A stretch of 64,000 nt of DNA from Amoebophrya sp. A120 (Eukaryota > Protista > Dinoflagellata), in contig CAJINV010000007.1 of the NCBI GenBank assembly GCA_905178155.1, forward strand, positions 1,903,151 to 1,967,150. The letters run 5' to 3'. This document shows, piece after piece, positions 12,163 through 36,700 of the stretch. Below the pieces are notes generated by a model, which saw only the letters and a list, made by a program, of their open reading frames with translations, had not been told where the DNA came from and did not search any database. The translations under genes and the position numbers were made by a program. The first letter of the stretch is position 1. Every line of letters begins with the position of its first letter.

Positions 12163-15100
12163 ATGGGTTCTTGCCTCGGCACGTGTCTCGCCAGCTGCTT
12201 TGGCGTATGCTACACAAAATCTTAGCTCTCCACCATCACCATGATGATCGCCATACAAAAGTTTTTTTCACTGCTGTGCAAGATGAAGAAAAGGAATTTA
12301 CGGAACGTGAATGGATCGCCATCACCATCACCATCGATCATTCGCGTCGAGTAAATATAATTGGTGTTTTGCATATAATGTATGAGAAAAAAAAAACACA
12401 GTGAGAGCGAGGAACAAGCTCCTGTGGAAGAACAACAACAAGGTTTTCCGTAGTTGCATAAAGCAGTTGCATGGGGAAATGCCTCACCTCCGGCCACGTC
12501 AAGAAAGACTCTACGATGCGGAAGATGTTCGCGTTTCTGCAGCTCTGGAACATCGTCTGGCTGTTCATGTACCGCTGGCTTGCACCGCATTATCAAAAGG
12601 AAAAATCCCCCCTCTCCATACTGAAAAGGTATATTTTTGGAAATTTGTGATGCTGATTTGTGGTCACATTGCAAGAAGGCAACTCCGCAGGCTCCGTCGC
12701 GTTTTGTCATGCTCTTGGGCCTACGGCCGCGCCGCTGTTTATCATGCTAAGCGCCCAGGCCGAAACCCCTCTACTCACACTTGATATGGGCCTGTAGTGC
12801 TCTCCAGCAAGAAAGCTCGGACTTGTGTGCACAAATCCAGCATCGGAAGTTTCGTTTTGATATGGGTTGGGCGGATTTTTCCTTTTGATACGCATGTCTC
12901 GAAGTTCCCGCTTTTCAACCACTTTTTTCTCTTCGAGTTTGGGATCATGGAATGCAACAAAGCAGGACGAGATGATCTTCATGGTGGTAATGCAAGAAGT
13001 GCGACTGCCCCAGGTGGTCTATCCTGTGCAAAATTATCGTACTCGTACTAATTGCAATCATGCATGACGAATCCTGTTTCTTAGCGAAATCAGCATTACA
13101 AATTCCATTTTTCCTTCTGGAAAAAATTGTATTGCGATTTATACTGGTGCGATACTTTTGCAATGCATATGGTCCAGATCAAAGCAAGATCACGGCTTGT
13201 TTTATGCTTGAGAATTACGAAGTAATTCGTTAGCACCAGTGTTGAGTCCATGGAAAAGAAGAGTCGTCTGCTCTCGTCTTCGTCTCGTCCATGTCTTCGT
13301 CATAAGATCTAATTGGTGGGTCGCGCATACCGCAAATAACGCGACGGCACAGGCAAGCGCTCTAGTTTCGTACTGGCCCAGTCTCGGGCGTCTAAAGTCT
13401 CTTACTAGACTAGAAATAGTAAGAAGTTGTTCACGTCAAGAGATCTGGGCTCCTGGCTCGGTTTCCGCATTACATGCGACGAGAGCGGCAACCTCGCAAC
13501 GTCTCTGCCTAGAGAAAAGCCCACTATGGCGCCCAAGTCGTTTTTGCGCAAAATCGAGTGCTCGTTTTGCAGCCAGAAGCGGTTGGCTCACACACCGCGC
13601 AACACTTCGCCCGCGTGTCCGAATTCTGAAGCCTGCAAAGGCGAGTGCTACTACTTCGCGAAAGACGGAGATTTGCAGACGGTGAAGAAGCATCGCACCT
13701 TCGTAGAAGCGACTTACCCCCTACCGAGGCTTCGCCTCGAAGACGCGAGCATCTGCGTCGACTGCAATCTTTGTAAGTTGTTCCCCGACTCCAGAAAGCG
13801 ATCCTGGGTATTTGATAGAGAAGTGGTCGAAGCTTCAAGCTTTGCTTCCAGCGTGGAAGACGATCCGGCATCAGCTCTCAGAACTCTGAAGAAGGCGAAA
13901 GCTTCGTACGAATATTCTGAGAAGTCTCCTCCTACATCTCTTCCGCGAAACTTAGGCAGCTCAGCTCTTGCAGACAAGCAGTCGCCCGCATCTTCTGAGA
14001 AGAATCCGGAAGCTTAAAGCAAAAGACATGCCGTCGCCGTCTGGATCCTTGTCTCAGGGCGTTGCCATGGGTAGCGACACGACCGTCGCTCAACAGGTCG
14101 AACCCGAAACGGCCGTCATCGAGGAGGAAGTCGCCGCAATGCGCGCGCGCCAGTTACTGGACCCCAAGTCGGTCGACTACCCGTTGCCATTCGACAAAAC
14201 CGGGACTGTGCACCGCCCAGACAACTTCGAGTGGATCCCGAGCGACACGATCTTCACCAAGCACGATGTCAAGTCCGTCGCTGTCAAAATGTACACCGAC
14301 AAACAAAGGATCACGGTGGTCCGACGATAACTGACTTACGACGGAGAAGCAATCACTTTGCGCTCCAAGGTGCTACTTTGTCTTTAATCTGTCTTGCATA
14401 TCAAGAGCGATTCACGCATCCGCACAAGCGTGCGTCTTCAACTCCATTCCCATCTTCATTCTCGAAGGTTCAGACCGAGCATCCGGCATACATGGCTGAC
14501 TCCCACGGCGACATGATTCAGAACGTCATCCAGCCCACTGAGACCCAGAGGGCCTGGAAGTGGGAAAACGGCAAGCACATCCGGCGCCTCCGCGCGCTCA
14601 CCATCGTCAGCAACGCACTCGATTACGCCACTTGGGCATACCTGGCGTTTTCCGATTTTCAGGACATCGAGTTGATCGCCAGCATGGCGGAGACAATCGG
14701 ATACGTCCTTGCGGACCAGTCCCGCGGCAAGGCGAAGTTGTGCATGCAGGTCCTCAAAGACTGGCTAGAAGTCCGGTTGGACGACATTCCCGATGGGAAA
14801 GCACCCGACATCGCTATGCGCAGTGCACTTTTCGACTTGAGCGTCGTGCTCTGCCCGCCCTTCGCAAACGCCAGCAAGTGGAAGTCCGCCTTTTGCAGAG
14901 CCAGTTTTGACCTGATCCCGCCCATTGCTACAGTGAGGTCCGTGGATGAAAGCCCGATGATCATCGTAGCGAGGACGCAGGATTATGTAAACGAGATTCA
15001 TGAGAAGAGACAGACTGACTTAGAGTTAGGAAAAGCTTTGCCCGGGCGCGTTGCTGACCAGGAAGGAATGTTGTAAGTCTGCGAAATTCATTTTCAGTGT

Positions 15101-18100
15101 TTTTGTTGAGACGAAAAGTCATCGACGTGCATTTTTTTGAAAAATGTATGCTGGCACTCCAAGAATAATTAAAATTTAATACGATTCCGCGACGCGGTCA
15201 GCTCAAAGCAGTGAGTGAGCATGTCAGCCGAGTTTGTTCGCCGTCACAAGCAAGATCTATGCCACTGCGTTACGATCTACCCGGAGCCTTTCCACGAGAG
15301 AGCATCTCCCTTTCGTCAAAAGTATTATCTTGAGCGAGAATTGTCATCACATGATAACAAACTCTCCTTCGTCTTGTAGTAAAAGTTATTAGTGCCCACC
15401 ATGACGGAACTCGTCTGCTGTGCGTGCTTTGACAAAAAAGATGAGGCTCTCTTCTTCATCAAATGCGCTGGCGCAGACTCCGCCACAGCTTGCGCCAAGA
15501 GGATCGGCATACATTTGCAAACAATGCGAAAAGGACAACGGCGCCATGTCCCACGGACACTTCCACACCGTCAACGTCCTCGACCCAGTTAAAAGCCGCT
15601 GTAAGACATGCAACGTAGCCAAGAACAAAAGCCGCATGAAGCAGGTAGCTTTTCGCTGTTTTCATCATTCTTGTTGCGTGCAGCGTTCATCGTTGTTTTC
15701 CGTCAAATTGGAATTCTCATGTCCCCACCGCACTCCTTCTCAGGTAGAAGATGAGTTGGAGAAAGCGGCTGGCGACAAAAAGGCCATCCAGCTGATAACG
15801 CAAGAAGAAGACTGGTTCCCGGAATGGGTCTGCATGAGTCAAGAAGACAAAAAGGAAGCGCGCCGCGAGTTGAAAAGACCCGCGCTTCAGGAGGTCGACG
15901 TCTCAAAGCTCAACTCACATGACCTTGCCATCGCACAGCAAGCACAGTCAGCGGCGTCTGCGGCCGCAGCCACCGGCGCGAACGCAGCCGCGTCGGAAGT
16001 CAGCAAGACCTTCAAAGAAATGAAGCGAATGAAAGTCGAACACAAAAAGACGAGGCTGATGCTGCTGCCCAAGCACAAAGGAAGCTTTGCCACCTACAAG
16101 AAGTTTCTGAGTAAGGTAGTGACTATTTGTTTTTCTTTTTGCATGACGGTAATGCTAGGCACTTACATTGCGATCGCACATAACTGCTCATCATTCTTTC
16201 CCAAGGTGGTCTTGCACTTCGACGGACAGCCGGTCGCGGTGCTAGCCAAGCGCCACCGCTTCCTCATCTCTTACATCGAGGACTCGTCAGCGCGCTTCTT
16301 GTCCAAGGCACAGCAGAACTCGGAGCCGGCATCCAATCTGTGCTACGCAGCCTACTTCTCCATTCGAAGTAGTGTTTTGTTAGACCTGTGAGCATGGCTT
16401 GTCTTCAGGCAGCCGGGTCCGGGCAAATTTCGACCATTAAAATCGGCATAAAAAACCACTAATATAAAAGTTGGGGCGGGTTGTGTTTCATTGGCTACGT
16501 GGCCTGCCTGGCAAGGGGCCCCATTTTGTTGCCTTCCCATACGTGGCGCGTGGCGCCGAGGAAGGACGGGCCGGGCCCCACCGGCTTTGGTGTTTTTGTG
16601 CCTCCACGGCCCCCGGGGTGTTTTGTTTGAGTTTTTGCCCGCCTCTCAAGCGCATGCACGCCGCGTGCCTTTTCTCTTTCCAGCTCCCGGGCTGCTTTCG
16701 CCGGGCTCCACCTGGATGGCAGCTGGGCCGGTGGGGTCTTCGGCCAGTCTATGTGGCCTCGCCGCGTTTGGGAAGGGGCGACGCGCGCTGGTGGCTTTGG
16801 CGTTTCGACAGGTTTCGTCCCCATCGGCATTGGCGCCGTCCCCCAGTCGGGGTCTTTTCGGAGGGGCGTCGCCGTTTGTTGATGGCCGACAGGGAGTGGT
16901 GGTTGTTGCGAAGGACTGCTGGGTTTGCAATAAACCCAGCAGTAACCTTCGCAATAACCTTTGCAATAATTGTTGCATTAAAAATGCAATAAAATGTGCT
17001 TTAATTTGTTTTCATTGAAATCCTTAGGGATTTCAGTGTTTAACAAATTAAAGCAAATTTTAATGCAAATACTAAACAAAAATTAAACTTAATTTAAACC
17101 ACAAATTACACCACTTTTAAAGCAAAACAACAGGGCCCGGCGAGTGCAGGGGGGGGCGTCGCCTCCGCGCCGCGGGGGGGTGTTTGGCGCGATTATTTCG
17201 GCAAGCAAGACCCGAGGTCCGCAGGTGTGGAAGCAGCCGGCATTTGTCCGGTGTTGCGCCGGATTTGGCCGGCGCGTCCGTGTCGCTTTGGTGTTTCTGC
17301 TGAAGGTGGGGCTGGGGTTGTCGTGTTTTTGCCCTCGGCCGGTTTGTCCTCGTGGGGCTTTGTTGGCCCCGCATTTTTTGGGGGCGAGGTGGACAGGGGC
17401 CAATGGCTCACCCGATCACCCCCATCCCGGCCCCGTTCCAGCTTGATTCCATCGAAACCCATAGGACCGGGGCGGCCGGGCCCCCCTGCCTTGGTCATGG
17501 CCAAGCCGCGCGGCGTTTTCGGTGTGCCCTTTGTGGGGTTTGGGGCCGGCTCTGTGGAATCAAAGTCATAACTTCGGCCAAGAAATTAAAGCATTTTTAT
17601 GCTGACACTACACCGGGCAGCTTGCCCGGGCCCGGCAGGCTGATTGTCTGTGTGCAGTTGTAGATTTGTGAGCATGCGTTCTATTCTCACCGCGCCCGTC
17701 TTCTCTAGGTTGCCATCGAGAAATCAAGCTCACGTCGCACATCTCCGAAGCCAAGAAAGCTCTGTGGTTCATGTTTTTCCAGCCACGCTTTTCGTTCGTC
17801 ACTGCCTGTAATTTGTCGAGCCCGTCCATCATGTCGGCCCTCATGAACGTCATTGAGTCCGACACGTCTAGAAAGCGCACGCAGCAGGATCAAGGTCAGG
17901 GTGGTTATTACGGCAAGTCTCAGAACAACAACGGCAAGGGCAGCTCGACTTTCTACCCGGCACAGCCCGCTTACGACTACTGTCCCCAGGTCCCATCCTA
18001 CACAACGCCACAGGCAGCAGCTCAGGGAGGAGGCGGCAATGCCTCCGGCATGACCAAGGAGCAGAAGCAGGCCGAAATCGCGCGTATTCTGAGCCAGGTG

Positions 18101-21100
18101 GTCAACAACCCCCAAGGAGCAGAGCTGAATTTTGAAGCTGCAAAAAAGATCGATCGTGGCCTCTCGTGCAAATTTTTCGAGGCGAACGGTCATTGCCGCA
18201 GTTGCTACATGGCAGGCTTTACGTTTCAAAAGAAACATGAAAAAGGCCTGAAAAGTTGTGAACTCGCAGGCACGTCTTTGCTGGGGTAATGCAAAGCGAG
18301 TGTCTTCGTAAGAGTTTCGCTCTGGCTGCATAAGAAACCCATTCTCAGGCATCCCCTGCCATATTATCTGTGCGAACTGCAAGTCGGCCAAGCACTGGCA
18401 GTCCCAATGCACAGCTCCGTCGGCAAAAGGCAAGCCAGGAGGTGGAAAGCCAGGTCAGCAGCAGCAGCAGCAGGGTCCGCCCATGATGAAAGGTGCTCCC
18501 CCAGCGCAAGCATACGCCCAGGGCGTCCCTGGCGCAAAGGGAGGGCCGCCGAATGTAATGCGCGCCCCGTCGTGGTAGTCAACGGCTTGAACAGCTCGCC
18601 ACATGTACAGGAAATCAGCTGTAAGATGAAACTAGATCGACGCTTTTTTGTTTGTGTTTCCAGTGGCATCGATGCTGACACTTAATTGCCATCCCATTCG
18701 CGCCATCGCTCAGTCAGGAGCTGCTTTCATACAGTCTGGCGCTCTGTTCACATTCGAAGTGTGCTTCTCGTCGTACTTTTCGTCATATTGCATGTTGGTG
18801 CGCATCGTTGTAATCTTTGATATGGCCCTTCGCTACAGATCAGACCACCGGTCGGCGTTCTTGGCAACTGCTCTCACATCAGATCAGCCGAAGGATGTCG
18901 TTGCTTCAGATGAACCCCAAAAGAGCGGCGAGCTCAGCTCTTGCAACTGAGTACGCTCAGGAGCGCGAGAAGGCAAATCCCAAGCCTCAGAAGAAAACGA
19001 AGGCAGACTCCGACGCAGTCAAAAAAGCGCTCGCAGAAGCAGCTGTGGCCGACATTGAGCCAGACGAGGCCCCTTTGTACTTAGCAGAAGGCACTTCTTG
19101 GCGTGATTTAGATGATCCATCACGTAGCATCGTTTCTTCTAAATTCCTTTTCGTCTCATCTGTATTTTTTTCTCAGGTAGCATAGCACAGGCTCCAGCAG
19201 GGGGCAATCAAGCAGTGCCCGCGCTGTCCAAGTCAAAAAGCACTTCGTCCGCCAGCAGCGACTTCGTCTTCGCCGAAGCCGTGTCAGATTTTGAAAGCTT
19301 GAAGCCACCTGCATCGTCGGCGTCATCAAGTTCAAAGCCCCAGGTCGCAGTCGTCGCGCCGGCGGAGAGAAAAGCCGCGGCAGCATTGAGCCAGCACATG
19401 TCCTCCGGCATGCCATCGCGTGAAGCTGATGACTCGAAGTTGAAGGGTCAGATGAAGTCTTCCGAAGTTTTCTCTCAGAAAGATTCTACTGAAGTTAGCA
19501 CTTTCCCACAGGGTCCAAAGTGGTTCGATGCTTTCCCGTTACGCGACGACGTAAGAAAGCAACTTCTCAAGTCGTCTTATGTTTTTGCAAGCAGTAGCAT
19601 CGCACCGTCTTCGTGTAAAAATTTTACGAACATTTTAGCAGTTGTAGTTCCTCGAGTGTGTAGACAACTCGGAGTGAAGTTATGGCCACTCACCAATGAG
19701 CTGGGGCGCAGTTTGTTTTTCGCGACCTTTGCTACTTACAAGTCGTGCCATTTCTCGCACTTGAACGACAGAACGAATAAAGTCAACTGGTCGGCGTTCA
19801 AAAGCCTAAGTGCAGCCATCGGAGCTTACAACTCCTGTCGTCCAGAGTGTGACACGTATTCGCTACGCTACAAAAGCAGACCCTTCGCACGCATCTGGGA
19901 AGGATTCAAACGCAATGCAACTTTGCCTCTAAATCAGACCTACAAACTTCAGCCCACTAGATACCAAGTAGACTTAGTCCTCACAAAAGCGCGCCAGGAG
20001 TCCCACATCCACTGTTGTCCTCCCGGGTTCCTGTCTCATCAGCCTCCAAATTATTTGGAACCTTATTTAAATTCGAAGCAAGCCCTCTCGGCGGCGCAAG
20101 ACTACCAAACTGCGCTTCTGGCAGCGATGCAGTTCTACGGCGTCCGTCGAGGAGCCGAGATGCGGGAGTTGCTAACCGACAGCCTAGCTCCGAAGTATCT
20201 TTTTCCCGACGCCCCAAAGGAGGCGGAGCGTTACTGGTGCTTGCAAGTAGTCAAGGCAAAAAATGACGTTTATGCGCAAGGCAATTTTTGCGTTTTGCCT
20301 CTGTTTTTGACACCGCGCGCCACAGCTTGGATGCGCTGGGCTGGGGCTTTCGTCCGATTCTTTTTCAAAAAGGAGTACTTCGCAGGGAGTTGCAGTTTAT
20401 TTTTCGTAATAGGCAGCACGCGCATCAAATCTCGCGGCACTCCCTTGTCGCAAGATTGCCTCAGAATAAAGCTAAAAGCACTGCTTGGGCAGTATCTACT
20501 CCCGAAAAGCAAAAAACTGCCCGGCCCAGTCGCGTTAAGACGAGCAGGAGCCACTCGCGTGGCCTCCATGGATAGAGCAGTGGCTTATAATCAGGGTGGC
20601 TGGAGAAGCAACAAGATGTTGGATGCCATTTATGCCCCCTTAACACGCGAGGACTTAGCGCGGTCAATGCAAAAGCATTTCCCAGAGTCAGCAGCTCTGG
20701 CTCACTTACGGCGCGCAATAGTTAAAGTTGAAGAAGCTTATGTGAAGAACGCTTTCAATTTAGGCAGTCTCCTCATCGGCCTGCAAGACATCCCAGTGAG
20801 TGTACCGCGCGAAACTTTTGCGCGTCTAGCGCCAGGGCTGACAAGGGCAGCCAAGTTGAACTCTTTGAAGGATGGTTTTCACAACGTCTACTACCGTCTT
20901 GGACTAAAAAAATAATCATTTCGCTTTCCCACTGCCTTGTCGCTGACAAAGCACCGTCGGGAGTTTGGCCCAGTCGTTTGCTCTCCCATTCAGGCACGCA
21001 GCCGTCTTTCTGTTGTCGTTCACTTCAATTGTCAACCACCAGTCACTAGCGTGGAGAGAAAGCCCGGCAAATGGAGCAGCCCCGGGAGTACGTGGCCGAG

Positions 21101-24100
21101 AGCGACCCAGCAGTTCCCACGAGAGAAGGGAGAGAACTAGGCATAGTTCCAGACCCAGGCATGTCCATTCGGGACTACATAAGTATGGGACTGCCTGCCG
21201 CCAACTTGTCCGCCCTGGAGTTTCTGCAGTCGCAGGAAGGGCCCGACGACAAGTGGCGGCCGGTCGAAGACTACCTCACGTGGCAGGGGACCGCGCTCAA
21301 TCCCTTCATGTTGGCACGCTACGGGCTCAGCCCTGCCTTCATGGAGCGTTTTTTCGGTGGTGTAAAATTCGACGTGACAGTGGACGACTTCAAAGTCAGC
21401 CAGGTCAAGAATTACAGCGGAGCCACGACCTACGAAGATTATTTCACCGAAGAAGTCTGGCGCTTTATCCACAGCAAAAAAGTGGTAGTGTACGAGGACG
21501 ACGAGCCCCCGGATCTTATGATCGCCCCGGGAACAATACTTAAGCAAAGAGCGAAGTACAGGTATGTTCTGTTTCTCATGACACTCATGTCTTCTAGCGC
21601 ACGTCATAGCCCGCGTCATCTTCTCATCATCACTTAGGTTGGTGGCCGACTGGTCCAGCCCGCAAGTAGCCGCCAGCCAGATGCTGTACAGTACACCAGT
21701 CCAGTATAGCTGCTGGCGGTCTCTCTTCGAAAAGCTGTGTCCGGGAGCTCTGGCGTTTGGGCTCGACCTGGCCGATTGCTACGCACACTGGCCAGTGCAT
21801 CCCAGTCAGCGTCGCCTACTAGGACTAGACATACCGCAGACGGGAGCGAAAGCGTGCCATTGCTTCGTGCCATTCGGTATTTCCTAAGCTTTTCATGCTT
21901 GTTTTCACACTTGTGACTACGCATATGCTTCGAGTCTCATAGTCGCGATTTCTCGGCAGGTATATCACCTGCCCCCGGCAAGAATGATGAGGCGATCAAG
22001 GAACTCACTCGTATCCAGTACCGGGCCGGATTAACGGCCTGGCTACTGGATTACGTCGATGATATAAGGGGCGTCCTCCCCGCCCCGTGCAGCACGTCAA
22101 TGGAGCACACCGCGCGCGAATTCCAAAAAACATTCTTCATGTTTTCGCTGTTCGGTTGTCAGCTACATGAAAAACCAGGAAAGAAAATCCCGCCGACAAC
22201 AAAGCTTCCATGGCTCGGGTTCGAGTGCGATACGGAAGCAATGACTATGGCGATAGAAGAAGAGCGCAGAGAGCAGTATGCGATCGACGCGCAGCAGTTT
22301 CTAGATGAGGTGTCTTCTTCTCCCTCGCTAACAACGACAGCCAAAGCGGCGGCAAAGATTTGCGGCAAACTGCAGTCAATCACCTTCATCCTAGACGGCC
22401 CGCTCAGGGGCCTGCAAGACGCGCTCAACGCCTCCGGCTGCTACCGGCTGTGGCAGTCGTCGCGGGATCACAGTCCCAAAGTCTCGCTGTCGCACGAGGT
22501 CACTCAAGACCTGAAGTGGTGGGTGCACGAAATCAACCAAGTGCCGAAACGCAAGCTCCACTACTACGGAGGCAGGTGCTTCCTGTGGGGCCAGCATGTG
22601 TTAGAATTCGGAACGCAATTTTTGAACTCCATCCCGCCGTCGGCCTTTCTCGTCATCTATGGCGACGCCGCAACGGAAACCGGATGGGGCGGCACATGCA
22701 GAGGAGTGCACTACCAGGGTTTCTTCCCGCAGTGGATCAACCAGCACGACATAAACGCGAAAGAAAGTGCAACCCTCCTCATCGTCTTGGAGTGCATGGA
22801 AGCGCGCGGCGAGCTCCCACCAGGAATGCTCGCGCTGTATTATACGGATAACTTCACAGCAAAGAAGTTCGCAAACAAAGGCAAGCACACCAACCCGGCA
22901 TACTGGGTGGTTCTGCACCAGAAGACTGAAGTCATTGCGCCAGCGCAACCAGCTGGAGCTCATCGGGGCCAAAGTGCGCGGCTTGCGCAACATCGTTGCT
23001 GATTGTCTCAGTCGTTTCGACGATCACGTCTTCTCTTTCTGTGATCCGGAGCCCGAGCGTTGCCTAAACAACCGGGCATGGAGTCACATCATGAAAAAAC
23101 TGCCCGACATCGCCATCGAGTGCTTTGCGTCGTTAGACGACTCCGACAAGACTTCGCGCCTAGCCACGAAGTTCACGTCCCAAAACATGCCGCTCCAGAA
23201 CTTCGAGCAAATCAGCAAAGAAAAGTCGCGGTGGTTTCCACCAGGCGACATCGTCTACCCCGCAGTAAAATTTTTGCAAAAAACAGCACAGGGCATCCCG
23301 CTCGCGAACCGTCCGAAGTTCGCGGCTTTCCTTCCAAAAGCAGGAGGCAAATTTGCTCCGATGACATCCTCCTTCTACAGAGCAAAAATCTCGCACAAGA
23401 GGGGCGCTAAGATCTTCAACAGCAAAAATCTCGAAAAGGTCGACATGCCGGCCGACGATGACTACGAGGTCTTTCTTTCGGTGCCCATCGAGCAATGGTC
23501 TTCCACCACAAATCTCATCACGATCGAGAATCCACAGCACACGAAACTACTTCAAAACGCAGTCTTTCGCAGGTCTCTCAATCTACCAGGAAACACCGTC
23601 TGCAAATGCATCGCCCAAGCGTCGGAGCAGTTGATCGCGCATTTGTGTTGCACTGATCCGGTCGCGCCTAAAGGAGTAGCAGAGTTGGTCTTTGATAGGT
23701 GGCCATGTGCCAACGCTTATCCCTTACCAGCTTCCCAGAAGCCATGCAAATCGTTTCAAGTCATGCATCCGATTGCTAACGTTCACTCCATGTGTCATCC
23801 AGGGCCGCCGAAGGCGGATAGAAACTACGACACATACCAGGAGCGCCTAGATGCTTTCAATTCATCAATGTACAGCTTAGCAGTCTATTGCAGCAGCAAC
23901 GGGGTCAAGTCTGTGGCAGTCCCGTTACGCATTGGCTGCGGTCTCAATGGCGGCAAGATGTGTGATTACGCTCTCACTTTGGGCCGCTTCTTCATGAAGT
24001 GCCGAAGCTTCGGCGTCATTGTGCGACTCTATGAGAATCCCGACTCTCTGTGAGCATATTCATGCGCACGCTTTTTCGGCCCAAGAGCCGTCACAGTTGT

Positions 24101-27100
24101 CTACTCTTACCATCCCAAATGGTGCCCACTGTGCCCCATATGCGTCTGCGCGCAAGGAGTCGAACTCGTGTTCTTAGCACATTTGGTCGCAATGTGTGAC
24201 GGGTTCCTCGTAGCCAGGCGGCTAGTCGGATCGTATGGGTGCTGGGCAAACTACACTCTTCGTATTTCTCCAGGACGATAAATTTTATGCTTGAGAATTA
24301 CGAAGTAATTCGTTAGCGCCAGTTTTGAGTCCATGGAAAAGAGGAGTCGTCTGCTCTCGTCTTCGTCTCGTCCATGTCTTCGTCATAGGATCTAATTGGT
24401 GGGTCGCGCATACCGCAAATAACGCGACGGCACAGGCAAGCGCTCTAGTTTCGTACTGGCCCAGTCTCGGGCGTCTAAAGTCTCTTACTAGACTAGAAAT
24501 AGTAAGAAGTTGATAAAGCCGCTTTTTTCATCCCACCCACCTCGCCCTGTGAGGAAGTCACATACAGGGATTTTGTTCACTCATCGTCACTGTTCGTTGT
24601 GTGAGTGTGTCTATCGTCTATGCATGGAAAACGTCTTTTCCATGGTCTCGCCTTACGCTTCTCACTAGTCGCCACGAGCTCCGTTCAGCGTTGCGTCTGC
24701 GCGCAAGGAGTCGAACTCGTGTTCTTAGCACATTTGGTCGCAATGTGTGACGGGTTCCTCGTAGCCAGGCGGCTAGTCGGATCGTATGGGTGCTGGGCAA
24801 ACTAAACTTTTCGTATTTCTCAAGGACGATAAACTTTCAACAGCAAGCGACGGAGCGGGTGTTTCTCTCGTTCGCGATCCTCTTTCTGATCTTGATTTTC
24901 CTCTCCGCCTATCAAGTGTAAAAATGTCTGGGTCTGGAAACTTGTGATGCTGGGTGGCGTCTCATGATGAGGCTACAAATGCTGGCTCAGCATGACAAGT
25001 TTCTGAGCTCCTAGGTGTTGCCCCCTATTCTACTGCACGACAAACTGCGCTTCTGCATCACAGAAAAACGGAGCTCTTGGGTAACGTGCGTGACAGATTT
25101 AGCAGTCATGCCAGACAAGCATGACAAACATGAATTCTTCCAGACCCAGACACTTTTACAGTTGATACGGCCATCGGCGCCACGAAGATTGCGCTCAACA
25201 AGTTCTGGGGCGCGAAGCTGCTGACCCCGGTGTTTCTTCCGTTCCTATATCAAATGTAAAAATGTCTGGGTCTGGAAGAATGCAACTTGTAATGCTGTCT
25301 GCGGATTCTAAAAATATCTGTGTTGCATGAGCAGCAAGAGGACTCAGCTCTTGGCACGCGGAGAGGGCATTTCTCATGCGTAATTAGCATCGAGCTCGAG
25401 AAGCTCTCAAAAAATCTGTGATGCTAGCACCAGCATCACAGACCTCACGGGTCATGCAAAATGTGCATGACAAGTCCCGACTCTTCCAGACCCAGACATT
25501 TCTGCATCTGATATCCTATTCGCGTTTTTGATTCCGAACGACTTTTTCGGGCTGCAGTCGTGGCTGTACTACACCTGCGGGGGGGTCTCGTTGTTTTACC
25601 TGACCGCGCAAATGATGATTTTGTACGACTTGGGGCACAGCTGGAACAAAACCTGGGTGGAAAACGCGTTGGAAGCGCAGCGGGAGGCAATCGTGAACCC
25701 GAACGCGTTTCTCGGAGGGGGCGGTAATCGCAATCGGGACAACAATTCGCATTCCAACTTTTTCCGCCAATTTCTCCAATCCAGGCCAGGAATCCTGTGG
25801 TACTTGGGAATCCTCCTTGCGACCATCATCTTCCTGACGATCGCCGTCCTGGTATCATTTGTAAAAACGTCCCCACCGCATAGTCAAGTTTGGAATCTAG
25901 CAACACATCAAATCTCCAAGTTTTGGGAGCTGTGCATGACAAGTCTCCCTCTGCAGTGTAGTGCTGATTGGCAAGAGAAGCTGCATGAGAAAGTCATTTT
26001 CACATCCTGTTTATAGCATTACAGATTTTTCCAAAACACGACTGGAAATTCCTCTCATGCAGCTGCGCATTACAAATGTTCCTGTCATTGCGCATTTGCA
26101 TGACAACTCTGGTGTGGGGACGCTTTTACTCAGGATACCTGGCCGTGATTTACCTTCCGTTCGTCGTGTACGCGAATGAACCCAACCAGTACGTCATCCT
26201 GATTTCGCATTTTCTAAGCGTCGCCTTGTTGATCCTCTCCGCCAGCGACTGGTGCAAAAACGGTGCCATTCTACCCAGTGCACTACTGGTAGCATACTTC
26301 GCGTGGCTACAGTGGCTGATGGTGCTGCAGCGCCCGGGGATAGTGGTCAATGGCCCCGCCGCCCAGCAGGGTCGTGGGTCTTATCTTGGAGGTGCGCGGC
26401 AAGCAGATGAACACCCCCAGCACCAAGAAATCCTGAGCGAGCCCCGTGGGACGATGCCGCCGACTTCTACTTCTTTTCTCCTACCTCTCTCGGCACAGAG
26501 ACGATCATATATTTCCAACGGTGTTATCCGGGCTTTTGCGGCTGATAGTGTTGTACTTTCTCCACAGGAGCAACATCATGCAGTGTCGCACCAGAATGAT
26601 CTTCTTCAATCCAGAATCATCAGCTACGAATACAGCGATCACGTCCCGATGACCGCAGATCGCTATCTCTCCTGGTGGGTCGGGTTGACGATCATGCTGG
26701 TTTGTTTTTCCCTTTTTCTAAGGAACCCGAGCCTGTTGCAATTGGAAGACGCTGAAACGGCGGAGGACCGGAACTTCGGCGCTCGGAATGGGGAAGAGGA
26801 CTTGGAGCAGTCTGACTCCAGCGACGAGGAGCAGCAGGCCACGGCTGTGGTTGGACCGGAAGACGGAGATGATCATACGACCGGAGATCTTCAAGATGGA
26901 GACGCCGGTGGCCGAGAAGAGAACACCTCCAACCGTATCCAAGAAAAAAACTGTGTTGGTGTAACTATCTTTGGCAGACAGCATCACAAATTTGCTCTAC
27001 ATGACAGAGAAAGCCTGTCACGCGTGGCTTGTAAGGGAAAACACACATGAAAAGAGAACTTCGTGGCTATCTGGCATGACAGGTGTAACTTTGTTGCGTG

Positions 27101-27681
27101 TTCTACATTACAGATTTACGCTTACGCGACAGCTTTTTTCTTGCATAAACCGTCGGCGCCGTTTAATCACGACGGGGGGACCGCCGAAGGAAGAAACGCT
27201 CTACTTCTTGACGATCCACGCGGTATGGGAGTGTCAGGATTGAAATTGTCAAAGTTGAAAATGAAATAGTTTGTCATGCATAAAATGCATGACGCGAGGC
27301 GCGTGTGTTGCAGAGCAGGCAAGTGAGGCCGATTGTAAGCCTGTTTGGGCTTAGCGCTCGAGCTGCTGAAGTAGTATGACAAAATCAGTCTTCTTTGCCT
27401 AAGCAGCATGGCAAACTGGATTTAAGGACTACCAAAATTTGTCATGCGCCACTTGGAAACTGGGTTGCAACTGGCATCCATTTTATGCATGACAAATCAT
27501 TTCAACTTTGTCGATTTCAACTCTGACGCATCCATACGCGGCTTCGGCGTTTTACTTCCGCTTCCTGCTGTACCAGAGACAAGACTTGGTTGGCTACTGC
27601 ATTCTAGCGGTCGGCTTGTACGCAAACATAGTCCTGTTTGGCTGGGCGCTGGTTCGCCCGCAGATTTACCCGGATGAGTAG
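12163..27681 (+). CDS. Serinc/TMS1 (serine incorporator) family multi-pass membrane protein, interrupted by 7 introners and the YR retrotransposon
   Basis: N-terminus MGSCLGTCLASCFG; reconstructed motifs CFQQQATERVFLSFAILF, LNKFWGAKLL, FYLTAQMMILYDLGHSWNKTW, NGAILPSALLVAYFAWLQW and C-terminus FGWALVRPQIYPDE* match the Serinc consensus. Confidence 0.85.
12591..12890. mobile_element. Introner family A
   Basis: TATCAAAAGGAAAAATCC...GGATTTTTCCTTTTGATA TIR, TSD CGCAT. Confidence 0.9.
13020..13169. mobile_element. Introner family D (150 bp)
   Basis: TAT...ATA, TSD TGGTC; highly similar to 32324-32473. Confidence 0.9.
13200..13429 (+). repeat. Split direct repeat A1
   Basis: 230 bp; about 4 mismatches (counted by eye) versus 24283-24512. 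Confidence 0.95.
13526..15076 (+). CDS. Retroelement 5' ORFs (Cys-rich Zn-finger-like N-terminus plus helical domain), structure unresolved
   Basis: MAPKSFLRKIECSFC...CPNSEACKGEC...CVDCNLC (13526-14017); ORFs 13968-14330 and 14231-15076 with protein-like composition. Confidence 0.5.
15401..18578 (+). CDS. Gag-like protein with Cys-rich fingers and a CCHC zinc knuckle, multi-exon
   Basis: Frame-compatible introns 15645-15743, 16116-16205, 16369-17708 (GT-AG) and 18216-18348 (GC-AG); C-x2-C-x4-H-x4-C knuckle CANCKSAKHWQSQC at 18369-18410; stop at 18576-18578; the 5' part appears frameshifted. Confidence 0.7.
16405..17643 (+). other. ~1.24-kb imperfect rod-like fold-back inside a Gag intron
   Basis: Symmetric pairing about the loop at ~17024-17026 (GCTTTAATTTGTT..GAAATCC/GGATTTC..AACAAATTAAAGC); ends CAGGCAGCCGGGTCCGGGCAA / TTGCCCGGGCCCGGCAGGCTG; several internal helices checked, with many G-U pairs. 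Confidence 0.85.
18817..20915 (+). CDS. Tyrosine recombinase (YR) of the retrotransposon
   Basis: GVRRGAE (catalytic R), KAKND, VALRRAGAT (HxxR box with H replaced by V), GGWRS...AIY (catalytic Y at 20631); upstream exon joined by the GT-AG intron 19124-19176. Confidence 0.88.
21071..24053 (+). CDS. Pol-like polyprotein: RT - RNase H - DIRS-type adenine methyltransferase-like - Macro domain (2 introns, one apparent frameshift)
   Basis: KYRLVADW, GLDLADCY, VPFGISPAP, YVDD (22052-22063), WLGF; RNase H motifs GDAA, INAKE, YTDN, NIVADCLSR; MT-like IECFAS...WFPP; Macro IAHLCC..KGVAELVFDRWP...SVAVPLRIGCGLNGG; introns 21562-21637 and 21877-21959; +1 shift near 22905. Confidence 0.9.
24141..24282 (+). 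repeat. Split direct repeat B1
   Basis: 142 bp, near-identical to 24692-24833. Confidence 0.95.
24283..24512 (+). repeat. Split direct repeat A2
   Basis: Near-identical to A1; directly abuts B1. Confidence 0.95.
24692..24833 (+). repeat. Split direct repeat B2 (right terminus)
   Basis: Near-identical to B1; followed by CTTT and then Serinc exon sequence. Confidence 0.95.
24910..25167. mobile_element. Introner family F
   Basis: TATCAA.TGTAAAA.TGTCTGGGTCTGG TIR; TSD CCGCC/CGGCC (1 mismatch); frame restored (FLSAIGATK). Confidence 0.88.
25248..25513. mobile_element. Introner family F
   Basis: Same TIR type as the 24910 copy; TSD TCCTA. Confidence 0.9.
25853..26137. mobile_element. Introner family G
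   Basis: TATC..GTAAAAACGTCCCCA / TGGGGACGCTTTTAC..GATA; TSD CCTGG. Confidence 0.88.
26936..27147. mobile_element. Introner family E
   Basis: TATCCAAGAAAAAA...TTTTTTCTTGCATA; TSD AACCG; reverse-complement homolog of 32555-32763. Confidence 0.9.
27224..27536. mobile_element. Introner family C
   Basis: TATGG..GTCAGGATTGAAAT TIR; TSD CGCGG; similar to the 29136 and 31444 copies. Confidence 0.92.
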
Positions 27682-28529
27682 AGTTGTTGTAAGGTAGAAA
27701 TACATTAGCTTCAACTTGTAGCTCATCGGCGGCTCATACAGTGAGTCTTCGGTACAGCTCACTGAAATACAGGAAACAAACTGAAAGGGAGAGCATGTGC
27801 TGTAGTAATCTCAATCTGGAGGTTGTCAGCAATCCACTTGGAAGTACGAAGGAACACAAAAAATTGAAAATAAAGTCCAAAAAAGTCACAAAGTAATTTG
27901 ATACGACCGGGCTCTAGAAAAACAAAAATCTCAAGCTTCATCTATAAGTAGGCGACGCCGATGTGGTGTTGCATAGCAGATGTTCATCTTTTCAGTATTT
28001 TTGAAGTTGGTATTTGTATTGCGCTGCAGCAGCTTTGTTGTTGATGAAAAGAGTTTACTGGATCCATTTTTTCAATTTTAGATTCACAGGCGATATTCTT
28101 ATTCACGCATCCATTGTATTCATCTCCCGCGGCGTAGGTTGCAACCTGGAAAATTGATGTTTTCCAGCGCAGAGTCGTCAATGACCAGGACCACGCGATG
28201 GATCAAAAGAGGGGCTGTTAGCAAGTAGATCTGTTATGCAGCTGCACCGGCACAGCAGCGGCACACCGCACACGCGGCGTGTGAGTACACATGCTTTTTT
28301 TTCTTTCGCCTTTGCGTGAATTGTTCTTTTCCTTGCTACATACTACGTTTCAAATGCACTCGATATTTTGTGAAGATCATCCTGAATTCATTGAAGATGA
28401 AATCGAAAACAGCTACCGCCATTTTGACGAGGTCTGTTGCTGGTGGTTAGCTTCAACATTTCTTCTCAGTTTCCTCTCGGACCACACGGCAACATTAATA
28501 GTTCTCGTGTGTAGTACTAGAAGATCAAT

Positions 28530-30734: not shown

Positions 30735-33700
30735 GTGCCGGCGATCTGGTTTCTTCTTTGTTTCGTGGCCTACTACTTGTTTGCCCAAGAAAAAGATCCT
30801 GCTCCTTGTGCGAAAACGCATCTTGACCACGTCTTTCATCTGATGTTTTATCATATGCTTTGTAATTGTAAACTACAATTCGCCGAAGACAATCTAAAAA
30901 CCCAGGCAGCTCAAAAAGAACCACATACCATGGTTTTGGTTTTGCTCTAGAACATCTGATGCTTTGATGCGCCGCACCCACAGAAACTGAAACGTACGAC
31001 TACCACAATATCGATGAATGAAATGCACAAGAAAATGCGGGTCTCCGGGGACGTCGACGAGGCATCTTCTATGGGCCAGCCCGCGGAAAAAATCCGCAAA
31101 GTCAAAAACATGGAGTGCCGCGGCCGAGAGGGTGTTGAGCGGGCCGCCGGTGCGGCGGTCGGTGGGAATGGGACGCGGACGGGACACGAGGAACAAGGAC
31201 AAGACAGTAAAAAAGCGTCCAACTACACTATCCTCGATAGCCGGAGGCTTGCTCTGGATCGCAACTTCGTCGTGGAACTACAGAAGTGCAGGGCCTCCGT
31301 TCTTCCTGCAAAGTTCGTGCCAAATCAACATGGTTCAAGCACAGGAGGGGCACGACCCCGCCACCATGGAGGGACTTCTGACCCACCCCGCCAATCGGGT
31401 CAGCGAACCACTGATGCTGCTGCGATATCTCGCAGCCGAGGACTATGGATGCGTCAGGTTTGAAATCGACAAAGTTGAAATAACTTGCAATGCATAAAAT
31501 GCATGACCCGCGGTACGTGTGTTGCAGAGCAGGCAAGTGAGGCCTATTGTAAGCCTGTTTAGGGTTAAAGCTCGAGCTGCTAAAGTAGCATGAGAGAATC
31601 GCTCGTCTTTGCCTAAACAGCATGACAAACTGGATTTAGGGACCGCCGAAATTTGTCATGCGCCACTTGGAAACTGGGTTCCAACTGGCATCCATTTTAT
31701 GCATGACAAATTATTTCAACTTTGTCGATTTCAACTCTGACACATCCATAAGGACTCCGAAGTTTTGTACGACGAACTGGACAATTACTACAGCGACACA
31801 ACGGAGTCAATATCTACACAACGACAGAATTCTACTACCCGAAGCCTACACTCTCCCGAAGGGGCCCGGGAGCTGGTGGAGCAAGTAGAAATACAAGAAG
31901 ACCACCGGGAATGGGAAACGAGACCTACATTGATGGCCGCGCTCCACCAGAACCAGAAGAACGAGAAGATGAACTCAGGCGGACATCAGCAGCACGAGCT
32001 TTTCGACCAAGCCACGAGCTATTCCCTGAAAATGAACCACGACCCCCATCCAATTTGATGTCATACCAGAAACATGTAGGAAATTCTATTCTGTGCTTGT
32101 CATGCAAAATTAAACAAAAAGTGAATCATGGGGAAGAATTGAAAATTTTCAGGGAATACGAGCTCGGCGACCACCAGCCCAGTGTACCGAGTGAATCGCA
32201 CCCTGGAGTTCCGTTGGCGGTCATTTCTGATGCGGGAGTTTGTGCGAACACACTCGTTTCCGAACGGGCAGCGGAATAAAGACGGAACCGAGAATTTTTG
32301 GAAAATTGGAGACGGTGCTTACATATGCTCTGCAAAAGTATCGTATTCGTACTAATTGCAATCATGCATGACAAATGTTGTTTCTTAGCCAAATCAGCAT
32401 TACAAACTCCATTTTTCCTTCTGAAAAAACTTGTATTGCAATTCATACTAGTACGATAATTTTGCAATGCATATTACACGTACTGGGGAAAAGACGCGTG
32501 CGTGCGGGACCTCGCGCGCTGGTCGGTGGAGCACCCGCTCGGAGCCAAAGTGCTTATGCAAGAAAAAAACTGTGTAAGTGTAAATCTGTGATGCACAAAA
32601 TGCAACACAGTTATACTTGTCATGCTCGACATGCATGATCGGCTCGCTTCCTATGTGTTTTCCCTTACTATCTGTGCATAACAAGTTTTACCTGTCATGG
32701 CAGACGAACTTGTGATGCTGTTTTCCGAAAAGACTTACACTTACACAGTTTTTTTCTTGGATAGTGCTCCTGCCGCAGTTAGTGTGGTTTCACACTGACG
32801 ACAGACAATACACTGAACAAAAACCGAGAAGAATTTCATCTCAAACGCTAACGCTAACACAGCTTGTGTCAGCTCCATCTTCTACTTCGTTGTCGCCGAA
32901 TGAAGGAACGAATATTGCGGAACAGTCTTCGGAGACGACGAGGAAAACGCTCACCAGCAACGTAGCAGACAATAACGATTATGGCCATGGTGCTGAAGGT
33001 CCTGCTAGACGTACAAACCAGTCTGATCAACAAGCGCAAGCGCTCTCCCTGTACGCGACCCTGCAGCAGTGCGAACAGACGAGGCTGGGTAACTTGAACG
33101 TTGTCGATTTCTTTCTGGATCATGCAGATGTTATTGGTGACACGAGGAACGAAAATGACACCGTCAGTGGGACTAGCGATAGTCCTCCAGCAATGGGACG
33201 AGCTCGCCAGCACGAGCAGCAGCGTGGAGCTGCTTCTGAAACTACAGGAGAGCAACACGGTCGTCCCTTGAAGCTGTTGAAGGAGGTGTCTTACATCTGC
33301 CTTCCGAAGAGCTGCGAAAAATCCGAGAACACGCGTTTTTGGACGGAGTTCTTCACCTTCGTCGCGGAAGCGCGGACCGTCGCGGGACTAGTTTCCTGGC
33401 CGACGTGGAGCAGGCTCTTCGATGCTTTAACCCCATCGGGAATTGGCTCACCGAGGTGGCTCCACGACTTCCCTCGTGTGAGCAAAGTCGAGCCGTTGGT
33501 GGTCGGGTCTTTTGAGACAGTTGCAGTAGGAGACCATCACGGGAAAGCAGTAGTTCCTGCTGCAAGACGACAGACCATCACGGGAATTCTTCGTGCCTCT
33601 GCCTGGCTGAACCATCGGCAGCAATGCCTCGCGAGGGATTTGTTTATCAAGCCTGTGCGGGAATCGAAACGCGACTTTGCACAAAGAGCCGAAATAAAGA

Positions 33701-36700
33701 ATTCCTTGTCCACCTTCCAAAACCGCACGGACGCGTCTTCGGAACTGCAGCTAAACGACTTGGGAATTTTGAGCCATTTGCAGGAGCACCTCCACGCAAT
33801 ACAGACCGGCCCCGAGTTATTCGCGACCAGGAAAAATATTCGGCGCATGTTCGGCTACGGCTTTAGTGTCGAGGAATTGAACGCGCGATGGAATAAAGAC
33901 CATGATCTTCCTTTCACCGGCGCATCGGTGGATGAAACTTCTACAGGCACAGGAAGTGTTTCGACTGGTATGAAGTCGAGCGCTAGCACACCGTCGTCTC
34001 TGAACATAAACTCCTCAACAACGTGGTCCTCCACGACAACGGCGGGGAGCTCGATTACACAGCAACTCCCTCGTCTTCCAAGACAACCGTTCGCAAATTT
34101 GTTTCTGGAAACGGTAGAAGCTATTGGTGATCCGCCAGATGATGAAGACGGCCATGGGGTTGGGGAGGGGGGCTCACAGTTGTCAACGAGAATGAACACG
34201 ACTGTGGCGGAGCCGTTAGTAAAAGAGGAGTCCTCGCCACCGCTAGAAATGGATCCGTATCGCGTTTGGTACTCCGGGAGACCGCAAGCGATTATGGCAA
34301 AGACCCACCGAGGTCCAAGAGCTAATATCGCTTTCACGCCTTCGTTCTTGAATATCAAGTCGCGCTTTCTCGATGCGAAAACGGGCGCTCTGGTGATTGA
34401 CGGCACGGCAAATGGGAAAATCAATGAAGCTACTGCAACCGGCGGGCCTCCGCCACAGGTAGCCAACAGGGCAGGCGCTGTTCGGTATCGCGCACTGGAG
34501 CCGTTCTGTCGAAACGTGCGGGGAAGGGCGCATCCATGTTTTGGCGAAGAAAAGTCATTATTTCAACGACGCAACGGGAGACGACATCCGGAGCAGGAGG
34601 AGGTGGAGATTAAAAACCAGGAGCAATCAATTATAATGCGGGATGATTCCTCAAAAGGTAAGACCTATGCGCCCAAGAAAAGTAGAATCGGGAGGTCATC
34701 ATCTTCTAATGGACAGCAAGAACATATTTTCCGAAGTGAAGACACCGTGCCGACAATCCAGACTTTAGATGAGATATTGGACACGAGAAGAACTCCGAGG
34801 GAGTGGGGGAAAAGTCGTGACCTGTCGTCCTCACGACGATCCTCCGCTTCAAGCAGCACCGCTTCTGGTGCGACCACTCTCTCCTCCGCCAGAGTCGCGT
34901 TTTTCACCCTGGCCACCAGTCTGAAAACGAAGTGCGACCACCCGCTGCGGTTTCCCAACGGGGAGCTCCTTCAACTGCAGGACCGGTCGAAAAAGAACAG
35001 CTACTTTATCGATGGTCGCAACTTTGTAAACTGGTGTCACACGCACTTCTGGAAGTGGAACCAGCCCTCGATTGCGTTTTTGAGGAAGCGTGTGGGGGAG
35101 TTGCACTCGTTTCAGTTTTTCGGGGCGCCCGATGACGCCACAGGGCAGTTCCTGATAACAGAACCTCCAAGTTCTTCCGACGTCAGGCCCTCTGTAGAAG
35201 AAGTTGACCCTGAGCAAAGAACAGGCAAGACGACCGAGGAAATATTGGACAAGCGCCGCAGTGGTCATGAAAATTTGAGCCGCGTCGTTAGGTACTGCAG
35301 CCCGATCAGTATTAACCGACGTAATCTAGTTCCAGCTAAGCCAAAGGGCAAGAAGAGCAGGAACAATATGGACAACCACGAGGATTCAGCTGCTGCCTCT
35401 GCCAAAGATGATGTCGAGAATAACACCGGTAAGGAAAGAACAGGCGAAAGGGTTTTGCAGAGCAGGGCGACTATGCCTCCAAGCGCCGCTGCAACAGCTC
35501 CCCTAAAAATGTACCGTCAATACAATTTTGTCAACCCGGAGGATGAAAAGTTTTTCAAACAGTATCGAGTGACCGTCGTACCCCTCGACCTCTGTCGCCG
35601 CTACCTATCCAAGCTGCGGCCCTCGCACGCGATGTTTCCCCCCCGGCACCCTGCGGCGCACGGCAACATGGCGCTGTTCGAGTTTGCGCGCGTCGCGATT
35701 TTTGAACTCGGCACCATTTACGACTTGAGTCTGCACTTTGACACGGATTACCTAATTCCCCACCCGCTGAAGCTGCTGGGCGTGTGGGGCCAAGTTTTCG
35801 CGCGCACGGAAACGCGAACCGACACCTTTATGCTATTCCCGGCCAACGCCAACCAGGCGCAAACGAGTCTGCTGCTTTTGACCAAAATTGGCGAAGAGAA
35901 GAAGCGGCAGATCCTGAAGCACTTTTTCGATTTAGAGCTGCACATTGTCCAGGTCGACGACGCGGAGAGCGCGGAGCGGATAGCAGTAGCGGAGAAGAAA
36001 AAAGAGCTCGTGGACCGGAAGCGAAAAGCCGTGGAGGCTTTGCTGGAGCCATTTTATTTGCCGGGTGATATATCTCGTCCAGACGGGAGCGGGGCATCAG
36101 CAGCGAGAGCGACTTCAGCTTCAGCAGGTGCGGGCAGTACATCGTCGACATCTGCGACTACTGCTGCAACGACCCTACTTTTGTCCACCGAGAAGGCTGT
36201 GCGAAAGTTCGTCTACCGATGGCTGATTCGACAGACAGATAGTACCCGTGAGGGAGTTCCTGCGACGAACTCCACACGCCGTCGACAGGACGCTCTGGGG
36301 ACTGTTGTTCGAACTCTGGCAACGCAAGCTTTGTCTAGCAGTGTGCTCGTTGGTCGTGAAACGGACAAAGCTAAACCTAAAGCTGTGGACGTCGAAGACT
36401 ACAACAGCAAAAAGCCTCGCCCTATGATCTCCGTCTGTCTTTTCACGCAGCTTTTCCAAGCGTGGCTCCGATCGCTCGGCGAAACGGGCACCATCGGTCG
36501 TGGTGGTTGGGGAAGAAAAACAGCAGGCCGAATCTTCATGAAAGGTCGACGCATTGACGGCAGCACGACTTCTGGGCCACTTCATGAGGACCAAGTCGAA
36601 GTAGAAGCTGCAGTAGTAGATCAGGCTATTTTATTCCCTGGTGAGGATGAAGTGAAAGAATCTGTGAAATTTTGCGCAGGACAAACTACATCAAGAAAGT

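Follow-up and report, generated by a model that had tools for sequence, protein, structure and literature searches.

A decayed DIRS-order retrotransposon in a Serinc coding exon of Amoebophrya and its probable removal as one giant non-canonical intron

Results

Features of the locus

The window, a 64,000-nucleotide stretch of the Amoebophrya sp. A120 genome, contains a Serinc gene interrupted by a DIRS-order element of dinoflagellates, which is present as one decayed copy at a TTT in a coding exon. The features below are numbered from the first letter of the window.

12163..27724, + strand: host Serinc gene, 601 codons, nine interruptions; 3' end approximate
13201..24834, + strand: whole element, 11,634 nt as missing from the empty junction; the cut may shift by 3 nt over the TTT found at both ends
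13200..13429, + strand: repeat A1
13526..14017, + strand: ORF-A, 163 aa, Cys-rich
14028..15076, + strand: ORF-B, predicted two exons, intron 14370-14467; in-frame stop at codon 101
15401..17810, + strand: ORF-D, Cys/His-rich, predicted multi-exon; frameshift near 15500; 3' exon uncertain
16405..17643, no strand assigned: nested TIR element, 1,239 bp, non-coding, TTGTCT duplication, within an ORF-D intron
17831..18578, + strand: Gag-like gene, predicted 222 aa, GC-AG intron 18270-18348
18895..20915, + strand: tyrosine recombinase (YR), predicted 648 aa, two exons, intron 19103-19176; no lesion or stop
21071..24053, + strand: Pol, with RT (YVDD), RNase H, adenine-methyltransferase (MT)-like and Macro regions; GT-AG introns 21562-21637 and 21877-21959
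23550..24050, + strand: Macro domain, C-terminal in Pol
24141..24286, + strand: repeat B1, with TTT at the B1/A2 junction
24283..24512, + strand: repeat A2
24513..24691, + strand: A2/B2 spacer, 179 nt; an RNA-run contig starts inside it at 24540 and continues into the host exon
24692..24837, + strand: repeat B2, its end an imperfect inverted copy of the A start

Repeats and insertion site

The repeats were of the split direct type, A1…B1-A2-spacer-B2. A1 and A2 differed at 4 of 230 positions and B1 and B2 at 4 of 146, which together gave 8 differences in 376 positions (~2%). DIRS-order elements carry the same trinucleotide at their ends, internal junction and target (extract of PMC7192593). 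Here, one trinucleotide, TTT, occupied all of these sites: 13201-13203, the B1/A2 junction, 24835-24837 and the empty junction. The base preceding TTT was not identical between B1 and B2, being T at the B1/A2 junction and C at the end of B2. The insertion target was TGTTTTCAAC, with its TTT inside the Serinc exon, and the joint of the empty junction ran from 13200 to 24835, with three letters compatible with either side.

Repeat alignment, gene models and domain searches bore out the preliminary description of split repeats, a CCHC Gag and a YR followed by RT-RNase H-MT-Macro. As in the DIRS order, RT/RNase H and YR were enclosed by one repeat set. Since this single set spans both the YR and the RT genes, we rejected the possibility that the two halves were different nested elements. 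The YR-before-RT order within one element was also present in the Amoebophrya gene models P0007 and P0027. The length of ~11.6 kb given earlier held for the total, of which ~1.2 kb belongs to the nested TIR element.

One SL-like pattern in repeat B, picked after inspection of the sequence, was unconvincing; random windows reached its best local match in 1.7% of cases. A 17-mer at the end of B2 had 14 viral matches, none of which extended beyond 18 nt, and these were attributed to chance.

Upstream genes and lesions

ORF-A had no significant match in Pfam or, with residues 2-163 as the query, in PHROG. In the Gag-like gene, a CX2CX4HX4C knuckle appeared after the predicted GC-AG intron was taken out; an alternative 63-nt GT-AG intron was dropped because the CCHC frame was lost. 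Overall, about eight predicted introns of 74-99 nt interrupted the genes of the element. Three lesions were found in the reading frames, a stop in ORF-B and frameshifts in ORF-D and RNase H, the latter near 22910. Short-read contigs were identical to the window over 13400-16433, and one contig covered 17615-24170 without a gap. This agreement led us to dismiss long-read errors as the origin of the frameshifts. The nested TIR element has several copies in the genome; the DNA run X1 gave a depth of ~4x over it, and loose ends were present at 16404/16405. The intron-rich coding, the three lesions, the separate nested element and the host exon were absent from the preliminary description.

Pol and YR

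The RT, with its YVDD motif, extended over three exons. It had 110 relatives at E<=0.001, and a search restricted to longer proteins (1375-3925 aa) returned 2; no RT relative was present among 35 candidate stretches in viral contigs. In trees built from search hits, the RT and its Amoebophrya and marine relatives formed a supported clade. A Prorocentrum protein (P0057) matched one locus of this clade (L003). No Symbiodinium sequences were identified among the hits, and none of the 30 hit clusters inspected bore a trypanosomatid name.

The MT region was modeled confidently by AlphaFold, and its top Foldseek hits were the N6-adenosine methyltransferases PCIF1 (E 4e-4) and ZCCHC4. A DNA_methylase Pfam match was absent from Pol. 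These best fold hits suggest that the methyltransferase is adenine-type rather than Dnmt3-type. The Macro region matched a phage protein in a pairwise comparison (E=1e-10), which itself exceeded the Pfam Macro cut-off, and phrog_335 at 2e-5. Direct Pfam Macro hits were absent, a word-based protein search found nothing, and a two-sequence profile searched against 139 stored proteins gave nothing significant (best P0001, E 0.38). Fold prediction was unusable with a single sequence (pLDDT 40), and the aligned model remained below 50.

The YR was the only large ORF in the element free of lesions. It had no match in Pfam or in a word-based protein search. Its ESM Atlas neighbors at 0.96-0.97 included phage-integrase, NDC10 and ALOG/integrase clusters, with 22 of 30 hits lacking a common family. 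The residues R, K, R, W and Y are what we take to be the catalytic candidates, with V at the first His position.

Copy number

Contig depth, the sole basis of our copy-number estimate, indicated that the element was single-copy at 80% likeness in X1. The depth was even, at 41.5-43.2 over the element and 39.6-46.3 over the flanks. No empty joint was listed in X1 on the stretch covered by the element only, and the insertion appears to be fixed in the DNA sample. A genome-wide search for further copies had been proposed; contig depth gave no second near-identical copy. The earlier view that the insertion was recent is weak in light of the 8/376 repeat differences, the three lesions and the lack of such a copy. 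The locus does not represent a fresh, active copy.

The Serinc gene and the RNA junction

Amoebophrya has tens of thousands of non-canonical introns. The host gene was identified by a Pfam Serinc match of 3e-8 on one exon, and its interruptions were eight short TAT…ATA introns and the 11.6-kb element. When all nine were taken out by one rule, the TAT…ATA core plus 5 nt, an open frame of 601 codons resulted. For the element, the core was 11,629 nt and the removed length 11,634 nt; its cut register overlapped that of the only intron without a direct repeat. The rule was spotted post hoc. It was satisfied by 121 of 199,041 random cut pairs, and its chance rises to ~4.5% if the inverted repeat couples the two ends. 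The fit of the ends to an introner profile was modest, with a score of 7.1 on the left (equalled by 6.7% of background TAT sites) and 0.0 on the right (32% of background as high). The duplex of the ends reached -19 kcal/mol, as did 7% of random pairs, and was weaker than in 18 of the 20 introners in the window. That the Serinc frame is intact argues only weakly for selection, because at the lesion rate of the element an estimated ~0.6 lesions would have arisen.

In the run X3, contig 9 joined 13200 directly to 24835. Among the listed runs with the stretch, none was recorded as RNA; we take contig 9 to be mRNA because the predicted exons, once spliced, account for its internal length to the nucleotide (248 of 248 nt). 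The raw RNA runs X8 and X9 contributed 0 reads, and no conclusion was drawn from them. X3 also contained the filled 3' junction (24540-24864), identical to the window, which places the insertion in the cells of that run. Coverage of the element stretch in X3 reached 4 of 30 bins, and this was not used to judge expression.

Discussion

Origin of the empty junction

We consider it probable, at roughly 60%, that the whole element is spliced from the host pre-mRNA as one giant non-canonical intron. The host likely tolerates the element in this way, with all 11.6 kb spliced out. The empty junction was seen in RNA alone, where splicing and an empty DNA allele look the same. X3 and X1/X2 come from different samples, rare variants are lost in contigs, and X3 may have been a mixture of cells with the insertion and cells with the ancestral empty allele that made full Serinc mRNA. 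Such an allele would give exactly the observed junction, and no X3 sequence continued from the upstream exon into A1. However, this mixture is unlikely. The insertion appears to have reached fixation in the DNA sample, the listed X3 exon pieces were identical to the window over ~1.6 kb, and the TAT…ATA+5 fit would have to be a coincidence. The copy is also damaged, and new transposition in culture is difficult to reconcile with the lack of a near-identical donor and the frameshifted Pol.

A junction of this kind would also arise if the intact YR reversed the integration, cutting the element from the DNA as a circle in some cells or life stages and restoring the gene. The undamaged YR frame and the TTT and inverted repeat retained at both ends fit such an excision, but the empty joint was absent in X1, the histidine of the HxxR motif is replaced, and the idea presupposes YR expression, which is putative here; we regard it as quite improbable. 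It seems very improbable that the junction is an artefact made at the 3-nt repeat, whether by template switching of the reverse transcriptase or by chimeric assembly. This reading draws on the short direct repeat, the hairpin-prone ends and the fact that the junction came from one contig of depth 4.7 in one run. This contig had 30 letters on the 3' side against the 31-letter bridging rule of the tool, and its adjoining contigs overlapped by these 30 nt as well, the pattern that a fork in the graph would produce. Yet the join is in frame, restores a Serinc helix and is the sole continuation of the Serinc 5' exons in X3, and a template switch would require an abundant 11.6-kb precursor.

Under the general DIRS model, the insertion would have arisen from unspliced full-length element RNA that was reverse transcribed, with the ends completed from the internal B1/A2 copy and circular DNA recombined by YR into TTT. 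In this putative cycle, the MT would serve to mark the cDNA, and the Macro domain would act against ADP-ribose-based defence. The short terminal inverted repeat would be the YR site; starting with TATG and ending with GATA at the offset used by the host hairpin-intron machinery, the paired ends would be cut like the other introns of Serinc.

Relation to known elements

VIPER and TATE of kinetoplastids have the gene order Gag-YR-RT/RH, with which a figure legend is consistent, and YR follows MT in PAT types. In contrast to PAT-like elements, where YR lies downstream of RT/RH/MT, the present element has its YR upstream of Pol on the same strand. It differs from Ngaro, which has no MT and places YR after RT/RH, in its MT-like fold and in having YR first. 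With PAT-like elements (Pat1, TOC3, kangaroo) it has in common the split direct repeats and MT that define them structurally; in kangaroo the YR is inverted (Szitenberg et al. 2014, extract of PMC4157794). The available part of Ribeiro et al. (2019, PMC6681497) gives A1…B1-A2-B2 repeats for VIPER. The split repeats, the CCHC Gag, the gene order and the unique A2-B2 stretch are shared with VIPER/TATE, whereas MT and Macro, both present here, are described for VIPER nowhere in that part. SymbioDIRS of Symbiodinium, both SymbioDIRS-Dnmt3 and the DNMT-less DIRS, resemble the element in their dinoflagellate host, A-coding-B-A-B repeats and shuffled YR/Pol order, which occurs in two structures; their RT is likewise too divergent for Pfam (de Mendoza et al. 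2018, extracts of PMC5890265). As described in these extracts, SymbioDIRS-Dnmt3 is set apart by its Dnmt3, where our element has an adenine-type MT, Macro, extra 5' ORFs and introns.

The element is therefore less new than the undescribed lineage first claimed, with repeats and YR/Pol order known from VIPER and SymbioDIRS. The combination of MT and Macro was not found in print, nor did we find a literature report of a Macro domain in YR retrotransposons of the DIRS order. The Macro domain and the intron-rich layout are additions to the known DIRS accessory set, and the element marks an RT clade mostly missed by Pfam.

Non-canonical Amoebophrya introns with TAT-led inverted repeats have been published (extract of PMC7789003). 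Like the element as proposed here, Amoebophrya introners are mobile DNA removed from mRNA, with TAT-led inverted ends and short direct repeats. Introners form repeated families at many genes; the element was at single-copy depth. According to the accessible portion of PMC12130899, three DIRS-class introner families, two of them in a dinoflagellate, occur in Polarella glacialis and Lasiodiplodia and use GT/GC/GA-AG sites, one being noted as mostly solo repeats. In contrast, ours is a full-length, single-copy 11.6-kb element with non-canonical ends. Amoebophrya was absent from the rows with final class DIRS in the supplementary introner table, as far as seen; the table also lists some Amoebophrya families with coordinates as long as 13.9 and 16.1 kb, which we read as long family members.

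More tentatively, and at somewhat less than even odds, Amoebophrya may harbor a lineage of full-length YR retrotransposons whose recombination ends double as the host non-canonical splice signal, so that an 11.6-kb element with introns and a captured Macro domain sits within coding exons as a giant intron. If the present element is indeed cut with the TAT…ATA + 5 geometry of the host introns, introners would extend to whole full-length DIRS-order elements, and a weak terminal hairpin with a fixed offset would suffice for removal, without a 5-nt duplication and with little limit on length. An 11.6-kb retroelement with foreign ends would then offer a natural test case for the mechanism of intron removal in Amoebophrya.

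Organization and state of the element

The A1...B1-A2-B2 layout proposed in the preliminary description was borne out by the coordinates of all four repeats, and the element is real. The features are as follows.

13200-13429, repeat A1
24141-24286, repeat B1
24283-24512, repeat A2
24692-24837, repeat B2
16405-17643, nested non-coding TIR element, 1.24 kb (depth, loose ends, inverted ends, duplication)

A1 and A2 differed at 4 of 230 positions and B1 and B2 at 4 of 146; all four B differences fell within the last 33 nt. The inverted pairing with the beginning of A was better for B2 (24805-24834, -19.0 kcal/mol) than for B1 (24254-24283, -17.7 kcal/mol), and it looks as if the internal junction is the degenerate one. 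Depth over repeat A was 2.7x in the DNA run X1 and about 2x in run X2; there may be a third copy of A. Repeat B of this element (24174-24223) and of a relative at locus L004 (2728-2750) resembled the dinoflagellate spliced leader weakly, at a level insufficiently significant to claim.

The copy carries one in-frame stop in ORF-B and one frameshift each in ORF-D and RNase H. Short-read contigs from X1 and X2 spanned 13400-16433 and 17615-24170 without gaps and with at most one differing letter, so the lesions are real. The X1 depth of the element body equaled that of the flanks, and only 31 X1 contigs in all matched the stretch at 80% likeness; there is thus no second close copy. At 16405-17643 the depth was about fourfold and the left border showed loose ends; this segment, with inverted termini and a duplication of 6 bp, is a separate element within an intron. 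Without it, the element proper measures about 10.4 kb rather than the ~11.6 kb first given. The nested element has GC-rich arms and an AT-rich central palindrome, occurs in several diverged genome copies, and is unrelated to the TAT introners described below.

Genes and domains

The coding region is predicted to be interrupted by introns of 74-99 nt. Their removal gave a predicted Gag of 222 aa with a CX2CX4HX4C motif, a predicted tyrosine recombinase (YR) of 648 aa without stops, and a predicted Pol of about 939 aa. Pfam gave no significant match to any element domain, so each was examined by other means. The YR had ESM Atlas neighbors at 0.96-0.97 that included integrase-family clusters, and could be aligned to the YR part of the relative P0007 (E 8e-6). 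The RT/RNase H region had 110 relatives at E<=0.001. The model of the adenine-methyltransferase-like (MT) domain had pLDDT values mostly of 75-96 over residues 41-200, and this predicted fold best matched PCIF1 and ZCCHC4. The Macro domain matched, at E 1e-10, a phage protein which itself scores above the Pfam Macro threshold, and weakly TARG1 and alphavirus macrodomains (E 0.6-1.2). The Macro tail was undetected in all 139 collected proteins.

Relatives and gene order

Named close matches came from Amoebophrya sp. A25 (P0004, P0008) and AT5.2 (P0007, P0027), and P0057 from Prorocentrum; most of the 30 clusters checked were metagenome proteins without names. Both RT/RH trees were built from search matches, without named DIRS, PAT, Ngaro or VIPER references. 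The first (88 rows, with 45 of 132 matched proteins excluded for low coverage or length) placed the RT/RH of the window inside a 51-row clade with support 99. A more careful tree, built on 39 rows chosen by hand, paired it with P0001 (97/95) within an 8-row group holding A25 and AT5.2 proteins (99/95). The 21-row clade around it (99/99) was separate from the YLDD-type rows, which we took, by motif only, as canonical DIRS1.

YR preceded RT in both AT5.2 gene models, and at L004 a B1...B2 pair directly followed Pol. At a further locus, L003 (1019-6223), Pol was followed by Gag and next by what looked, on visual inspection, like the start of a YR, with no repeat between Pol and Gag; this is a circular permutation of the order in the window. 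Gene order thus varies within the clade. P0007, an AT5.2 YR-RT-RH-MT gene model, has a C-terminal Cupin_8/JmjC domain (residues 1532-1697, E 6e-20), either a captured accessory domain or a fused neighbor. Outside this RT clade, P0123 is a single polyprotein of 2,638 aa that recurs on many metagenome contigs of 9-10 kb; Pfam recognizes its RT and RNase H, and by eye it has a candidate cytosine methyltransferase before RT and a candidate YR at the end.

The suggestion of an undescribed lineage was overstated. The split repeats with YR first already belong to the VIPER plan (PMC6681497), and Symbiodinium has dinoflagellate DIRS with the same repeats and a shuffled YR/Pol order (PMC5890265). Dam-like MTs are described as widespread in DIRS in a preprint (bioRxiv 10.64898/2026.05.21.726589) whose searched part mentions neither Amoebophrya nor macro. 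No report of a Macro domain in DIRS was found in the openly accessible literature. The main text of the Amoebophrya genome paper does not contain "DIRS", and its intron analysis was limited to 40-1000 bp.

Removal of the element from host RNA

The element sits within an exon of a Serinc gene, whose eight other interruptions are all hairpin introns of the TAT...ATA type. A frame of 601 codons opened once every core was taken out together with 5 nt, and the element in the same way (11,629+5). The cuts were supported directly by contigs for some introns, and were deduced from the rule and the open frame for the remainder. In X3, a different sample whose RNA status is a guess on record but whose contigs nevertheless skip introns, contig 9 linked position 13200 directly to 24835, where three letters could belong to either flank. 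Between the listed pieces of this contig lay 248 nt, exactly the length of two predicted exons. We favor splicing by the host, with the whole element taken out, at a probability of 0.6.

Contig 12, also from X3, covered 24540-24864, with one end in the A2-B2 spacer and the other in the host exon, so one sample holds both empty and filled forms; no empty joint was listed in X1. A mixed culture would account for the empty junction as well, but seems unlikely. Excision by the YR, which under the DIRS model would integrate the element at the shared TTT (PMC7192593), is a still less probable source. The old intron 12203-12462 has TAT...ATA ends without a direct repeat. By contig arithmetic, the cut in this intron falls 1-3 nt to the left of TAT, a range that overlaps that of the element, and the removed piece exceeds the core by 5 nt; the host rule thus needs no duplication. 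An artefact appears very improbable. Against splicing stand the low introner-profile scores and weak pairing of the element ends, and the junction comes from a single contig whose shorter side has 30 letters. The rule was noticed after the fact, and the chance of the element fitting it is 0.06% if the ends are independent but about 4.5% if they are coupled by the inverted repeat.

Contig 12 starts within the spacer and has twice the depth of contig 9 (9.5 vs 4.7). It is possibly an element-driven truncated Serinc transcript. Across the window (1-64000), there were 20 TAT...ATA hairpin elements of 115-610 nt with flanking repeats matching at 4-5 of 5 positions, and some hairpin families reached a summed X1 depth of 10^4-10^5 or more. 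An open frame of 1,901 codons (32716-38421) starts inside an introner, in a genome otherwise rich in introns.

DIRS-class introners are already listed in a supplementary table for Polarella and Lasiodiplodia (PMC12130899), where they have GT/GC/GA-AG sites, in contrast to the TAT...ATA-type ends here. Given the predicted introns in its Gag, YR and Pol genes, the element would have to be copied from an RNA that escapes splicing while mRNAs are spliced. The domain order is moderately interesting; the part worth following is that host mRNA appears to skip the entire element with precision.
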